This document shows, one piece after another, positions 8,565-40,770 of a stretch of DNA of 57,289 nucleotides (the first letter of the stretch is position 1; each line of letters opens with the position of its first letter). Source of the stretch: Candidatus Parcubacteria bacterium (GTDB lineage Bacteria > Patescibacteriota > Minisyncoccia > Phycocordibacterales > UBA2100); assembly GCA_003599175.1 (NCBI GenBank), contig QZIY01000013.1:1-57289 (forward strand), given 5' to 3'. The notes beneath the pieces were generated by a model that did no database searches, was not told where the DNA came from, and saw nothing but the letters and a program-made list of their open reading frames with translations. Made by a program: the position numbers and the translations under genes.

Positions 8565-10321
<1,757 letters not shown>

Positions 10322-10567
10322 ATGAGTGCAAATACTTTCCATCTCGTCATTGCATCTGTCGGCGACACCAAATTCGACGCCGCAGCGGAAAGCGCGACGC
10401 TCCCGGGTGTCGACGGCATCATGACTATCCTTCCTCACCACGAACCATTCGTGACGATTCTCAAAAAGGGGAAGGTGAGCGTGAAAGCAAGCGGGGAACA
10501 CAAAGAATTTGATATCGAAGGCGGGGTGCTTGAGTGCAGTGGAAATCGCGCCGTTGTGCTTCTCTAG
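10322..10567 (+). CDS. atpC: F-type ATP synthase epsilon subunit, beta-sandwich domain only (81 aa)
   Basis: Matches the epsilon N-domain pattern (LPGVDGIMTILPHHEPFVTILKKGKV...GGVLEC...VVLL). No C-terminal helical hairpin. Confidence 0.85.
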   Translation: MSANTFHLVIASVGDTKFDAAAESATLPGVDGIMTILPHHEPFVTILKKGKVSVKASGEHKEFDIEGGVLECSGNRAVVLL

Positions 10568-23234: not shown

Positions 23235-23273
23235 GACAGTAAGTATAGCGTATGGAGTATAGAGTATGGAGGG
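23235..23273 (-). repeat. G-poor heptad-repeat leader directly upstream of the corA-like ATG
   Basis: Sense strand CCCTCCATACTCTATACTCCATACGCTATACTTACTGTC-ATG. Units are YYYATAC. The last TATACT is 7 nt from the ATG. Confidence 0.55.
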
Positions 23274-25734: not shown

Positions 25735-25766
25735 AGTATGGAGTATGAAGTATGGGGTATAGAGGG
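25735..25766 (-). repeat. G-poor heptad-repeat leader upstream of rpmA
   Basis: Sense strand CCCTCTATACCCCATACTTCATACTCCATACT-TTCTTAT-ATG. Confidence 0.55.
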
Positions 25767-25798: not shown

Positions 25799-26164
25799 AT
25801 GCAGAGAATACATGAATATTCGGGCAAGATCAAGGGCGTATTGGACCAGGGGCTCTCCGAGTGGGGCATCTTTGCCATCGTGGTCCTCGTAGGGCTTATT
25901 TCCTTTGGTTTGGGCCGTTTATCGGCCTTAGAGGAGGCCAGACCCCCGGTATCCGTCTCTATGGCGGCCGCCGTGGCCGCCCCTGCCCCTGTAGCCCCTG
26001 GGGGCCTCGTGGTGGCGTCGAGGGGAGGGAGTAGCTACTACTACCCCTGGTGCGGCGGGGCGCAGAATATAGCGGAGGGGAATAAGGTCTGGTTCGACTC
26101 GGAAAAGGAGGCTGAGGCAGCCGGATATGTACCTGCGAAGAATTGCAAAGGTCTAGAAAAATAA
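25799..26164 (+). CDS. membrane-anchored small protein with C-terminal Cys motif domain
   Basis: One TM helix ([18 protein letters not shown]), Ala/Pro linker, C-terminus [35 protein letters not shown]. Confidence 0.6.
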
Positions 26165-26328
26165 CGAGCGAAGCGACTATATTTTTCTTGATCCCGCCCC
26201 AATTTTGAACCTTCGGATAAATGTGCAAGACTGATGATAATTGGAGACGAGAAAGAGCATATGATCATCGAATTTACAAAGTCGAAATTGGGGCGGGATG
26301 TAAGAGCTTCTAAGCTCGCTTCGCTCGC
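26165..26328. repeat. 164-nt nested hairpin between the 25799 gene and the exonuclease gene
   Basis: Outer CGAGCGAAGCGA/TCGCTTCGCTCG and inner GATCCCGCCCCAATTTTGA/TCGAAATTGGGGCGGGAT, with a 73-nt apical region. Confidence 0.5.
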
Positions 26329-26342
26329 TAAGAATCTCTAAC

Positions 26343-26936
26343 ATGTTAGTCGTAGACGTAGAGGCCTCCGGAACAGACTATTCGAAACACTCGATCGTAT
26401 CAGTGGGTGCGCTCGATTTTGCCAATCCGCAGAATCGTTTTTATGAGGAATGCCGGATTTGGGACGGGGCTCATATCATGGATGAGGCGCTCAAGGTCAA
26501 TGGTTTTACCAAAGAGGAGATCACGGATCCCAAGAAGCAATCCGAAGCCGATCTCGTGCATGGATTTCTCGCATGGGCCGATAAGCTCGAGGAGCGCACG
26601 CTTGCCGGGCAGAATGTCTCTTTCGATCGCGACTTTTTGAAGCACGCAGCGGAGAGGGCAGGGCACACCGACTGGCCTTTTGCCTATCGCACCATCGACA
26701 TCCATTCGCTTGCGTACATGCACATGGTCAATCGGGGCCTGCAGATCCCTGTCGTCCATCGCCGATCGGCACTCGATCTCGATGCCATTATGAAATACTG
26801 CGGCATTCCGGAAGAGCCAATGCCACACAATGCGCTCACCGGCGCGCTCTCGCACGCCGAAGTCATTTCGAGACTCCTCTTTGGCCGCAAACTCCTGCCC
26901 GAATTCACCGACTTCCCGATTCCTTGGAAAGCATAA
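26343..26936 (+). CDS. DnaQ-like 3'-5' exonuclease (DEDDh)
   Basis: ExoI VVDVEASG, ExoII NVSFDRDFL, ExoIII H..LTGALSHAEV. Confidence 0.8.
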   Translation: MLVVDVEASGTDYSKHSIVSVGALDFANPQNRFYEECRIWDGAHIMDEALKVNGFTKEEITDPKKQSEADLVHGFLAWADKLEERTLAGQNVSFDRDFLKHAAERAGHTDWPFAYRTIDIHSLAYMHMVNRGLQIPVVHRRSALDLDAIMKYCGIPEEPMPHNALTGALSHAEVISRLLFGRKLLPEFTDFPIPWKA

Positions 26937-37990: not shown

Positions 37991-39121
37991 CTATTGACCC
38001 GATTTGAGTGCCTCCTTCGTCGTCGAAACAAGTTTTCGCATATCGTCGAAGCGTCCGTTTTGGGTCGAGCCAAGGACAACTGCGCTGATGCGGTGCCCCT
38101 CCACCTCAAACACGATTGCGAGATTGCCACCCGCAAGGTCGGTATAGCCGGTTTTGCCCAAAATGGCACCTGGAATGTCGGGAAGCGCCTCATCGGTATT
38201 GATGGCCGTGGATTCGGTGCCGTCGAGCGATTGCAGGCGGAAATTTTCTTTCGTTGTCGCGGCAAAGAGCGCGGAGTTGGTGTTGGCTGCGTGAGCAAAA
38301 AGCTTTGCCATGTCGCGTGCTGATCCATAAGCGCCGGCTTGGGTGGTGCTTTCGTCGAGTCCCGTCGCATTTACAAAGTATGTATGCGTGAGGCCGATGT
38401 TTTGGACGAGCTGATTCATGCGCCATACGGCAGCATCCTCTGCGGGTGCACCCAAGTACCGTTCCTGGATTGATTTTTCGGCCGCAGAAGCAAGGATATC
38501 GGCGCCGGTGTTGGAAGAAACCGCAAGCGTGAAGTCGATCACGTCTTGCAGGCGCCAGCGCTCCCCTTTGCGAAGCTTCTGGCTGGTCTCGTACGGAGAC
38601 GTATCGTATGGAATCGTGATGATGGTCGATTCGGGTAATGCTTCATACACCGCGAGCGTGAGTGGGACTTTGGTGAGCGACGCGAGCGGTAGCGGCGCGT
38701 CCGCATTCAATTCATAGAGTGTACGGTCGTCGGTGAGATCGACGACGATCGCTCCTTTGGCCTGCAACGTGATATTTTCAAAAATCGCGGGCGGGGGTGG
38801 CGGAGGGGGCGGCTCGGGTGTTGCCTGCGCTGCAGCGGCAACCGATACCGGAGCGGTCGGCAGATCGCGCTCCGAGAGAAATACCCACGTAAATGAGGCG
38901 CCTGCAAAGAAAATGAGTACTAAGGAAACGATGCCCGCAGTGCGGCCATCGAGACTATTGTGTATTTGGAGCGCCTTCTCCGCCGGTGTGGGCGCTGGAG
39001 TTTTCGGCTCCTCCAGTTGTGGCTTGGCTTCCACTGCCGGCGCTTCTGGTTTCGGAATTTCCGGAGCCGTCTCCGGTTTCGACTCCTCCGTGGTGTACGT
39101 CATTGGTGTTTGATCGTCCAT
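37991..39121 (-). CDS. S11 D-alanyl-D-alanine carboxypeptidase (PBP5/6-like) with Pro/Glu-rich N-terminus and TM anchor
   Basis: SLTK, SSN and KTG motifs in order. Start set at Met 39121. The tracked 509-aa ORF extends further only as antisense/out-of-frame read-through of scpB. Confidence 0.85.
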   Translation of the reverse strand: MDDQTPMTYTTEESKPETAPEIPKPEAPAVEAKPQLEEPKTPAPTPAEKALQIHNSLDGRTAGIVSLVLIFFAGASFTWVFLSERDLPTAPVSVAAAAQATPEPPPPPPPPAIFENITLQAKGAIVVDLTDDRTLYELNADAPLPLASLTKVPLTLAVYEALPESTIITIPYDTSPYETSQKLRKGERWRLQDVIDFTLAVSSNTGADILASAAEKSIQERYLGAPAEDAAVWRMNQLVQNIGLTHTYFVNATGLDESTTQAGAYGSARDMAKLFAHAANTNSALFAATTKENFRLQSLDGTESTAINTDEALPDIPGAILGKTGYTDLAGGNLAIVFEVEGHRISAVVLGSTQNGRFDDMRKLVSTTKEALKSGQ

Positions 39122-39671
39122 TGTGTTCAAACGGCGCCGCAGTCTTTTCGAATGCTGCGAGTTCGGAAGAGATTGTACCATAATCAGGAAGCTCCTCTGC
39201 GGTTTGTACACCGAGATGTGCGAGTAATTCCGTGGTCGCGCGGTAAAGATATTCACGAGAATCCTCCGGGTTCGATACGCGCTCGAGAAGACCGCGCGAA
39301 AGCAGATTGCGGACGGTCGAGCTTGTATTGACGCCGCGGATGTAATCGATTTGCGCGCGCGTGGATGCGCCGCGATAGAGGACGGTCGCCAAGACTTCGA
39401 GCCCGGCTTCGCCGATGTCGCGCTGCAGTTGTTCTTCAAAAGTGGCTTTGATCGTATCGCTGACGCGCGGTGCCGTGACGAGGGCGACTTCCCGCTCCGT
39501 CTGTGCGAGCGCAAGACCACTGCCTTCGATCGCTGCTTTGAGTTCGCTTATCGCTGCTTGCGTCTCGCTTTCGGTGCAGCCGAGAAGCTGCGACAGCTTT
39601 TTCATGCTCAAAGAGCCCCCTTCGATAAAAAGGTAGCTTTGAGCGAGTGCTGCGCGGTCAGATAGTTGCAT
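38955..39671 (-). CDS. scpB: segregation and condensation protein B with a ~55-aa C-terminal tail
   Basis: ScpB pattern (LFIEGGSLSMKKLSQLL...GLALAQTEREVALVT...RGVNTSSTVRNLLSRGLLER). The tail overlaps the dac start out of frame by 167 nt. Confidence 0.85.
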   Translation of the reverse strand: MQLSDRAALAQSYLFIEGGSLSMKKLSQLLGCTESETQAAISELKAAIEGSGLALAQTEREVALVTAPRVSDTIKATFEEQLQRDIGEAGLEVLATVLYRGASTRAQIDYIRGVNTSSTVRNLLSRGLLERVSNPEDSREYLYRATTELLAHLGVQTAEELPDYGTISSELAAFEKTAAPFEHNGRSNTNDVHHGGVETGDGSGNSETRSAGSGSQATTGGAENSSAHTGGEGAPNTQ

Positions 39672-39674
39672 AAA

Positions 39675-39770
39675 GCGTATAGAGTATAGAGTATAGGGTA
39701 TAGGGGGAAATACGAAATACGCAGTAATTGAGTTGGTCTCCCTCCATACTCAATACCCTATACTCCATAC
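39675..39770 (-). repeat. inverted heptad-repeat arrays bridging the scpA stop and the scpB start
   Basis: Plus strand GCGTATAGAGTATAGAGTATAGGGTATAGGGGG (39675-39707) and CCCTCCATACTCAATACCCTATACTCCATAC (39740-39770, contains the scpA stop at 39758-39760). About 25/31 complementary. Confidence 0.65.
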
Positions 39771-40483
39771 TTCGGGACTCCTGCATTCTCTATTTCAATC
39801 TCAATATCAGAAAAGAGTTTTTCTTGCGTCACCGAAGCGGAGCCGCTTCTCACAAGTTCGAGCATTGCGAGGAAGTAGACTATGGTGTCGTGACGATTGG
39901 CTGATTTGGTGAGCTCGCTGAATTTTGCGCGAATGGCGCGTGTGAGGCGGTTGTGCACTTGCTTGATCACGTCTTCGAGTGCGAGGACGGGCGCGACGCT
40001 CGCCTCCGCGAGACTCGCGGGTGTCGGAATGGTCGAAAGAATCCTCTTTGCCGCGGCAAGAAGCGTATCGCGGCGTGATTCTCCCGGGCTAAAGACGAGT
40101 GGCCGCGCAGGCGCGCTTTTGGGGAGCATGAGAGGTTTCGCACCCCAATTTTTCTTCAGAAGTTTCGCTGCCTTGCGGACGAGTGCCAAGCGTGCGAGAC
40201 GTCGCTCAAGCTCATGAACGCTCTCGCGTTCGTCTTCGGTCATCTCCATCGTCGGCAAGAGCGTGCGGGATTTGATCAAGAGAAGCGTCGATGCAACGAG
40301 GATGAATTGCGATGTCTCCGCAAGCGGCAGTTCCGGCAATTTTTCGATGTACGCAAGGTAGCTATCGCACACTTCCGCCATACTCACTTCAGAAATCGAA
40401 AGCTTTCGTCCCTCGATCATGTCGAGAAGCGCCTCAAGCGGCCCCTCAAATTGTTCTCTCTTCAGTACAAACTTTTCAGGCAT
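39758..40483 (-). CDS. scpA: segregation and condensation protein A
   Basis: FEGPLEALLDMIEGRKLSISEVSMAEVCDSYLAYIE is the ScpA N-terminal signature. Confidence 0.9.
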   Translation of the reverse strand: MPEKFVLKREQFEGPLEALLDMIEGRKLSISEVSMAEVCDSYLAYIEKLPELPLAETSQFILVASTLLLIKSRTLLPTMEMTEDERESVHELERRLARLALVRKAAKLLKKNWGAKPLMLPKSAPARPLVFSPGESRRDTLLAAAKRILSTIPTPASLAEASVAPVLALEDVIKQVHNRLTRAIRAKFSELTKSANRHDTIVYFLAMLELVRSGSASVTQEKLFSDIEIEIENAGVPKYGV

Positions 40484-40494
40484 GCCGCTTTCTT

Positions 40495-40749
40495 TTAAGC
40501 GTCCGCGAGCTTGATGTCGCTTTTCTTCGCTATCTGTTTGATCCAGCCGTCGTGGCGGGAAAGCTGCGCGTCGCGGGCGGCGTTTTCGAATGTTTCTTGA
40601 TCTGTTTTAGAAGCTGCACTTTCTTGAATATGCAGAAGTTTGCGCACCATTTCTTCCGTTGGCGCTATTTCTTCACGAACGATAGTTCGGACCCGATCTT
40701 CTGTTACAAAAACTTTCGTTAGCTTGTCGATATCCTTATCGTTCAACAT
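40495..40749 (-). CDS. small coiled-coil protein, distant member of the paralogue family (84 aa)
   Basis: C-terminal RDAQLSRHDGWIKQIAKK aligns loosely with DKDAVTIINHEKRITRIEKR. Tightly packed between aspS and scpA. Confidence 0.5.
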   Translation of the reverse strand: MLNDKDIDKLTKVFVTEDRVRTIVREEIAPTEEMVRKLLHIQESAASKTDQETFENAARDAQLSRHDGWIKQIAKKSDIKLADA

Positions 40750-40770
40750 AAGGCCATAGTAACACAACTG

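Follow-up and report, generated by a model that had tools for sequence, protein, structure and literature searches.

An inverted heptad-array hairpin at the scpA-scpB junction of a Candidatus Parcubacteria genome is almost certainly a young copy of a period-7 repeat class

Direct repeats of the heptamer TAACTGA, known from marine Beggiatoaceae and from some Cyanobacteria and Bacteroidetes, occur in sets of 2 to 6 units that are mostly intergenic, forward-oriented and end a few nucleotides from a start codon (MacGregor 2015, PMC4679880). In 132 of the 170 sets, the start codon that they face has no ribosome-binding site (RBS), whose place the repeats occupy; some sets reach into the end of the preceding open reading frame (ORF), and ribosomal-protein genes are found among the downstream genes (PMC4679880). 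Their function remains unproven; the suggestion is that they act in translation (PMC4679880). These repeats are the closest published analogue of the element analyzed here, a pair of inverted heptad arrays between scpA and scpB in a Candidatus Parcubacteria bacterium (contig QZIY01000013.1 of assembly GCA_003599175.1; the whole stretch of 57,289 nt that was analyzed is called the window below). Like TAACTGA, the arrays of this genome are tandem 7-nt units that run forward, abut a start codon lacking an RBS, in some cases overlap the upstream ORF and include ribosomal-protein genes among their downstream neighbors. The differences are also clear: TAACTGA is one exact heptamer (PMC4679880), whereas several families exist here, with 2-3 free positions in each; stops occur in all frames of TAACTGA, while the start-proximal arrays here are free of stop codons; inverted pairs with long hairpins are common here but were found for only 1 of 170 TAACTGA sets (PMC4679880); and the host, unlike those of TAACTGA, is a bacterium of the Candidate Phyla Radiation (CPR) that appears to initiate translation in a leaderless or Shine-Dalgarno (SD)-less manner.

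Other known systems share single features with this locus. Contiguous heptamers near start codons or promoters occur in Nostoc PCC 7120, where deletion of TTTTGAA repeats (of the short tandemly repeated repetitive, or STRR, type) in reporters alters the response of the recO promoter to regulators (10.1101/2022.06.06.494920). Unlike the arrays here, the Nostoc repeats are exact, have another unit, have reported effects mainly at promoters and are described without a stop-to-start hairpin. Repetitive extragenic palindromic (REP) sequences and REPINs are likewise short extragenic repeats, patchy among relatives, whose inverted doublets form junction hairpins; here, in contrast, the arms are tandem heptads rather than a single imperfect palindrome, the spacing to the start is fixed, and the REP-associated tyrosine transposase (RAYT), which mobilizes REP/REPIN elements, was not found. 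Coupling structures opened by ribosomes are known from coat/replicase of the RNA phage MS2 and from rpmI-rplT of E. coli. In those cases, as here, pairing joins the initiation region of the downstream gene to a stretch that the upstream ribosome has to cross, and the stem includes the stop codon, but their pairing is conserved and experimentally shown, whereas that of scpA/scpB is young, not co-adapted and moderately masking. Unstructured SD-independent leaders, standby sites and re-initiation by 70S scanning are also known. The start-proximal arm resembles such leaders: G-poor, without start codons and unstructured, it lies immediately 5' of an SD-less start; unlike the known enhancers, it shows strict 7-nt periodicity and conserved cores. 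Full-text literature searches turned up no publication on such arrays in CPR bacteria. The hairpin is a variant form of a known but unexplained element type; it is not a conserved control device of scpA and scpB.

The original prediction described inverted GTATRGR arrays with a 32-nt spacer between the two genes. We confirmed this heptad hairpin on the minus strand at 39675-39770, with the letters exactly as first read; its parts and the flanking genes are as follows:

39758..40483, minus: scpA (Pfam PF02616)
39770->39740, minus: arm 1 (5', stop-proximal), GTATGGAGTATAGGGTATTGAGTATGGAGGG, purine-rich GTATRGR x4, pairing with arm 2; compared below with the gene ends of relatives
39758..39760, minus: scpA stop TAG, inside arm 1 at arm-1 positions 11-13
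39708..39739, minus: loop or spacer of 32 nt, its 3' half made of two more degenerate units
39675-39707, minus: arm 2 (3', start-proximal), CCCCCTATACCCTATACTCTATACTCTATACGC, YCYATAC x4, written CCCCC + (TATACYC)x4
39669..39671, minus: scpB start ATG, with no SD motif upstream
38955..39671, minus: scpB (Pfam PF04079)

The geometry is as predicted: the scpA stop is part of the 5' arm, and the scpB ATG follows the 3' arm, which ends at -4, after only the 3 nt TTT. The arms had been called about 25/31 complementary, and in the ungapped register 0 the 31 positions indeed comprise 25 Watson-Crick pairs, 3 G-U, 2 A-C and 1 other combination. Tandem Repeats Finder reports period 7 in both arms, with 4-5 units each, and the motif GTATRGRGTATRGR, allowing at most 2 mismatches, has 12 matches in the window versus 1.16 expected. 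The RNA of 39660-39790 is predicted to fold with -47.3 kcal/mol (shuffle mean -28.8, z = -4.8; 0 of 200 shuffles fold as well), forming a nearly continuous stem of 28-35 bp worth about -42 kcal/mol. The 3' half of the loop (39708-39721, minus) reads GTATTTC GTATTTC, in arm-1 orientation and without a complementary partner, and 39707-39721 is reported as a period-7 row. The first 31 nt of arm 2 (CCCCC...CTATAC) contain zero G, and therefore no ATG, GTG or TTG start codon, and all their frames are free of stops. The repeats are imperfect: adjacent identical units are absent from arm 1 and number at most two in arm 2. Slippage contingency loci, such as the 7-bp repeats of H. influenzae hmw promoters, consist of perfect tandem units whose number varies within populations.

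Scans of the scpA/scpB junction for known signals were negative. No intrinsic terminator, defined by a short GC-rich stem and a subsequent T-run, was detected, the hairpin stem being followed by GCTTTATG, and a sigma-70 promoter scan returned nothing. Rfam gave only generic plant miRNA-precursor models at 19-25 bits, against thresholds of 73-135. The profile PF05635 (23S-IVS four-helix bundle) had no match in this genome, and the 32-nt loop holds no such ORF. We also considered, and rejected, an origin of the loop by duplication and decay of the codons that begin the downstream gene, as suggested by CAACTCAATTACTGCG versus CAACTATCTGACCGCG: in local alignments of loop and downstream gene start for five hairpins, a fraction of 0.27-0.82 of the null (648 gene starts) scored at least as high as observed, which is a null-level alignment. 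As a separate observation, a mini-ORF of 29 codons (MEGDQLNYCVFRISPYTLYSILYTLYATI and a stop; window 39658-39747, minus) begins with an ATG in arm 1, runs through the loop and arm 2 and ends 11 nt beyond the scpB ATG; this is weak evidence, since arm 2 is stop-free by composition.

What is this element? Almost certainly it belongs, as a young copy, to a class of period-7 arrays that extends through the genus and, in a looser form, through the phylum. We scanned the assembly (0.92 Mb, 40 contigs, 52% GC, 88% complete), whose nearest named relatives are metagenome-assembled genomes (MAGs) of Candidatus Paceibacterota/Kaiserbacteria, using gene calls from a crude ORF model made for this analysis and inspecting by eye the starts at arrays. 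Genome-wide tandem periodicity yields 34 arrays at period 7 and 11 at period 14, which is twice the unit, with all other periods at 9 or fewer. Several unit families coexist: GTATRGR/YCYATAC (family A, to which the scpA/scpB arms belong), CGTAGWW/CTACGWW (family B), AGCTANN (family C), TCAAATC, GGTTTCA, GATACTT and others. Their units have a fixed core and 2-3 free positions, and the arrays consist of 4-5 imperfect units, single or as an inverted pair. By a family-agnostic statistic (at least 4 in-phase identical trimers within 45 nt upstream of a start), period-7 arrays occur at 27 of 644 gene starts versus 0 of 597 coding windows, and periods 5, 6, 8 and 9 give 0; the proposed tie of the arrays to gene junctions, rather than an equal frequency elsewhere, is thus borne out. 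Co-directional junctions account for 22 of the 32 array-preceded genes. The products of these genes are largely core machinery (GroEL, EF-Tu, RpoC, RecA, NusG, L27, L23, S11, RF1, SerRS, PheT, GatA, Map, Def, AtpC, AtpE, KsgA and TrxB).

Three related copies lie within the window, where Pfam also confirms L27 (rpmA), CorA and the ATP synthase epsilon subunit:

25736..25763, minus: stand-alone, of family A, with four YCYATAC units; 8 nt upstream of the rpmA ATG
23243..23270, minus: stand-alone, of family A; 8 nt upstream of the corA ATG, with GCTATACT at -15..-8 as the last unit
10247..10321, plus: sister hairpin of family B, from the atpD stop to the atpC start, with the same layout and CGTAGWW/CTACGWW units, its arms also being written GTAGTWN / CTACGWW

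The kinships drawn in the original prediction, namely the same design at atpD/atpC with another repeat unit and the same start-proximal motif in the stand-alone leaders of rpmA and the corA-like gene, therefore hold. Family A occurs in pyrimidine sense in four copies (before scpB, rpmA, corA and the gene at C2:45747), and one further family-A pair sits in a divergent region. Placement is most regular in family B: of its 18 arrays, 13 end 7-9 nt (twice 2 nt) upstream of an ATG, and the gap is filled by one degenerate CTAnnnn unit, which brings the ATG into phase. All family-B stand-alone and divergent-pair arrays that adjoin starts have one polarity, the opposite polarity being represented by 0 copies. 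In the inverted pairs of families A and B, the purine or TAG-type arm is 5' and the pyrimidine or CTA-type arm 3' in 6 of 6, and the co-directional hairpins have the upstream stop codon in or beside the 5' arm in 5 of 5. Most arrays stand alone, without a partner arm, which means that the motif does not need a hairpin for its usual placement. The loops of family-A hairpins are mutually unrelated; two family-B loops have AACATGAAAA in common.

Three side observations concern these arrays. Three family-B loops (window 10272-10325, plus; C2:51920-51995; C4:34919-34995) contain an ATG in the common context A-A/C-C-ATGAA, which starts mini-ORFs of 17-24 codons that pass through the 3' arm and end either overlapping the downstream start (ATGA; atpC and the C4 copy) or 3 nt before it (the C2 copy); they could be a re-initiation relay, or chance. 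An fmt-like gene (C21:2696-2723, locus L084) carries an in-frame family-B array, CTACGTT x3 + CTACGAA, which falls in the Formyl_trans_N domain at about residues 73-82 and encodes ...YYVLRSTFYE.... Finally, separate CAA-type heptads (AACCAAG/AAACAAG/ATACAAA) stand directly after stops, not before starts; on contig C27 the array is the 5' arm of a hairpin at the rpoB-rpoC junction. The sites of this family are:

C17:2353-2400, CAA-type heptad array
C17:6379-6410, CAA-type heptad array
C23:998-1040, CAA-type heptad array
C27:8530-8577, CAA-type heptad array

The class extends beyond this genome. Family A is present in 16 of 61 genomes of the genus and family B in 9 of 25, with reversed-pattern controls near 0; in genomes from other families of the order, family B was found in 0 of 16. 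Among 201 sampled genomes of Patescibacteria, 60, from 55 of 169 genera, have five in-phase CTAs at period 7. Upstream of rpmA, the relatives have a common promoter, TTGATT...TGTATATTCT, and 9 of 29 carry a leader array of 4-5 units ending in ...CTAAT-YYY-ATG, with none at periods 6 and 8; the cores of these arrays differ (ATAC, CTAG, CTAC, GACTAT, GTATAC). A comparable turnover is seen at a junction (window 26165-26342, plus) that separates the genes of an Ada_Zn-like protein (25799-26164) and an exonuclease of the RNase T family (26343-26936) and has three states across the genus: in about half of the relatives it is short and its -10 box is positioned for a leaderless mRNA, eight relatives have a heptad hairpin of 74-99 nt in at least 4 unit flavours, and three genomes, including this one, have an unrelated palindrome of 175-183 nt. 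At some genes, then, arrays recur far above the genome rate of about 4%, while the unit sequences turn over, and gene junctions in general attract hairpin-forming inserts.

The history of the scpA-scpB junction could be read from 29 same-genus genomes, in which ScpB is 46-61% identical and which are not independent samples. Neither heptad arrays nor complementarity were found at any of the 29 orthologous junctions (phase statistic 0/29), contrary to the conservation expected of a dedicated ScpA:ScpB ratio device, which the original prediction had implied. In 25 of the 29 relatives, the gap between scpA stop and scpB start is -11 to +22 nt, that is, the genes overlap or nearly do (ATGA, TAGtATG). 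The absence of arrays, together with this overlapping or abutting arrangement, identifies the element as an insert of about 86 nt, recent and lineage-specific, in a junction that was ancestrally tight. One relative has a 54-nt gap, and two others carry unrelated palindromic inserts, of 133 nt in G070 (L014) and 141 nt in G054 (L037), which suggests that this junction has repeatedly accepted hairpin-forming insertions. No closer relatives of the junction at strain level were found, the best having 63% (metagenomes) and 71% (genomes) amino-acid identity.

A part of arm 1 predates the insertion. The ScpA C-terminus P-[KR]-Y-G-x-stop is kept in the relatives and is ancestral, so that the initial 13 nt of arm 1 represent conserved codons plus the stop rather than inserted repeat; beyond the ancestral gene end arm 1 has only GGGTATTGAGTATGGAGGG. 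Two of the five arm-1 heptads are thus simply the conserved K-Y-G-V-stop codons. The last five scpA codons, AAG TAT GGA GTA TAG (window 39758-39772, minus), nevertheless spell two heptad units, using minor codons for Gly and Val; given the peptide K-Y-G-V-stop, this spelling has P = 0.002-0.003 under genome codon usage. The element may have landed at a pre-existing microhomology, the gene end may have been overwritten synonymously, or the codons may have been selected to lengthen the stem; one array-less relative has the gene end TATGGAGTATAA.

How might such an element work? The translational setting of the genome is informative. GGAG, GAGG or AGGA occurs at -20..-4 in 10.7% of genes versus 12.9% in a control region, which is no SD signal, and the assembly contains no 16S rRNA gene. 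TANNNT peaks at precisely -12 from the ATG (78 of 644 genes, versus a background of about 9 per position), which is a signature of leaderless mRNAs; the -10 consensus is extended, TGnTAnAaT, with GCTATACT and GCTATAAT as top octamers. (A second TANNNT peak, at -6, comprises 37 genes.) Same-strand gene pairs with a gap of at most 10 nt number 130. From the lack of SD, the TANNNT peak and the short gaps, it follows that first genes are often leaderless and internal genes often overlap-coupled, and the genome looks largely leaderless and SD-less.

Against this background we propose that the insert is an inverted-array unit whose start-proximal arm serves as an SD-independent leader and whose stop-overlapping arm keeps scpB coupled to scpA. 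Ancestrally, scpB initiation would have been coupled to scpA through the stop/start overlap, and the insert would have opened the junction by 86 nt. The start-proximal arm would then offer an open runway to the scpB ATG, free of G, starts and stops and unstructured on its own. Opening scpB from -15 to +12 has a computed cost of 13.9 kcal/mol when arm 1 is present and 5.0 when it is absent (genome median 9.1; scpB at the 87th percentile); the composition of arm 2 and its low opening cost when alone fit a runway for SD-independent initiation or re-initiation. The opposed arm 1 overlaps the scpA stop and would pair with this runway, until a ribosome finishing scpA melted the stem and freed the leader for initiation or re-initiation at scpB. 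Because the stop lies inside arm 1, a terminating ribosome will have unwound the stem, and initiation at scpB would thereby stay dependent on scpA translation. We give this reading as a whole a probability of roughly 0.55. Its parts differ in strength: the letters, the folding potential, the insertion history, the membership of the class, the rules of placement and the SD-less, leaderless context are shown by the analysis, and what the element is can be regarded as near-certain, while how it works, as leader and coupling device, is tentative and stands at somewhat below even odds, with both the promotion of initiation by the array and its gating by the hairpin being what we infer.

Several results weigh against this reading. 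To the empty orthologous junctions are added a series of null results on the pairing itself. Shifting the register by -7 or +7 still pairs 24 and 26 of 31 positions, and all 24 permutations of the arm-2 unit order pair 25-26 of 28 (mean 25.5) versus 25 observed, so that every permutation pairs at least as well; there is no compensatory pattern, for which the original prediction had proposed to look in relatives. Across 13 hairpins, including orthologous ones of relatives, the observed pair sum is 299 versus 292.8 permuted. When arms are chosen on Watson-Crick pairs only, the ratio of G-U to A-C on the sense strand is 17:15; an apparent G-U excess of 30:11 was an artefact of choosing the arms by a score that counts G-U as paired. 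Sense and antisense folding show no consistent difference in stability. With register, permutation, G-U:A-C and sense/antisense tests all null, we rejected RNA-level selection on the stem. As these tests gave no sign of selection on the pairing, the complementarity follows from two arrays of the same family standing head to head. The computed masking of the scpB start is real but moderate. Polarity in family A is mixed, with two purine-sense copies, before def and before a gene on contig 23, and at junctions with long flanks arrays are about equally frequent after stops (5 of 185) and before starts (4 of 250). Overall, the geometry, the kinship to other arrays and the link to junctions that were first proposed for this hairpin have held up, and conservation, compensation and a role dedicated to scpA and scpB have not.

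The alternative that survives best, which we consider possible though unlikely, is that the arrays are selfish or neutral palindromic repeats, akin to REP/REPIN or to miniature inverted-repeat transposable elements (MITEs), which are tolerated because the hairpin loops the insert out and whose placement reflects the survival of insertions in a compact genome. The junction data agree with it: the element is absent from orthologous scpA-scpB junctions and patchy across the genus; the same junctions hold unrelated palindromes elsewhere, as in G070 and G054 and between the exonuclease gene and its neighbor, where heptad hairpins of several flavours also recur; covariation is missing; two family-B loops share a sequence; and arrays at long flanks follow stops as often as they precede starts. 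It accords less well with the regular 7-9-nt, in-phase ATG spacing of family B and the single polarity of its stand-alone and divergent copies, with the occurrence of rpmA arrays in 9 of 29 relatives versus about 4% of genes genome-wide, and with the enrichment of arrays before core, highly expressed genes. The expected genetic traits are also wanting: a RAYT profile (PF01797) had no match in this genome, which is only 88% complete, while 6 of 14 controls matched, and of MITE traits, family-A loops have no conserved internal sequence, target-site duplication not having been specifically searched for.

Improbable, in our judgment, is that the stem is a site for RNase III or another endonuclease, separating the two cistrons and leaving scpB with a very short, G-poor 5' end. 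A nearly continuous stem of this length and stability would suit such an enzyme, the scpB start lies 3 nt outside the stem base, and the strong leaderless signature of the genome is compatible with a short 5' end; but most arrays, being without a partner arm, would present no double-stranded substrate, and the pairing shows no selection.

Still less credible is a reading of the pyrimidine arrays as tandem -10-like boxes, with the inverted pair forming a bidirectional or internal promoter that yields a leaderless or near-leaderless scpB transcript. The units of families A and C, yC-TATAC-t and AGC-TAnAA, do resemble the local consensus TGnTAnAaT, and the last unit, GCTATAC(T/A), stands at -12/-13 in front of corA and the C2:45747 gene and, in three relatives, at the exonuclease junction. 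Among the array genes, however, only 8 of 32 have TANNNT at -14..-11, which equals background, and on this ground we rejected arrays as working -10 boxes for leaderless transcripts as a general explanation. The scpB boxes lie at -10 and -17, the invariant last T is missing from family-B units (TACGAA, TACGTA), arrays occur inside operons such as groES-groEL and atpD-atpC, and, as noted, the sigma-70 scan of the junction was empty.

Very improbable, finally, is either a hairpin dedicated to the scpA/scpB ratio or an array for a periodic binding protein of the HutP (UAG-N4) or TRAP type: HutP sites are UAG-N4 repeats, which the period-7 TA/UAG spacing resembles, and both the exact stop-to-start geometry and the match of the terminal scpA codons to the array (P about 0.002) speak for it, but the dedicated version is refuted by its absence from the 29 orthologous junctions, the same element type stands before dozens of unrelated genes, and a single sequence-specific reader leaves several unrelated heptad cores in one genome unexplained.

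Among neighboring features, an ORF of 90 aa between aspS and scpA (window 40495-40767, minus) has no Pfam match.

Our preferred reading, an inserted leader coupled to scpA through its opposed arm, has a broader extension that we regard as doubtful: heptad arrays could be a Patescibacteria-wide substitute for the SD sequence, a G-poor ladder read in 7-nt steps. The reader would be the ribosome itself or a ribosome-associated single-strand-binding factor (S1- or Csp-like) that places the ribosome at the start codon, and the hairpin with a purine 5' arm and a pyrimidine 3' arm would be its ribosome-gated form, in which the internal cistron is translated only after the upstream one.

How bacteria find internal starts without SD pairing is an open question, and the CPR bacteria are a large and almost unstudied group. 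This genome is a clean setting in which to ask it: it has no SD, a sharp leaderless signature, many gene overlaps and about 30 array genes, mostly of the core expression machinery. The scpA/scpB copy adds a readable history, a tight junction split by 86 nt with ScpB still needed, and thus amounts to a natural before/after experiment on whether such arrays support re-initiation and whether the opposed arm gates it. Even if the arrays are inert they matter for annotation, by gene callers as well as motif searches, as they overlap stops, recode gene ends and sit inside fmt; if the ladder reading is true, they would represent an undescribed mode of translation initiation and coupling.

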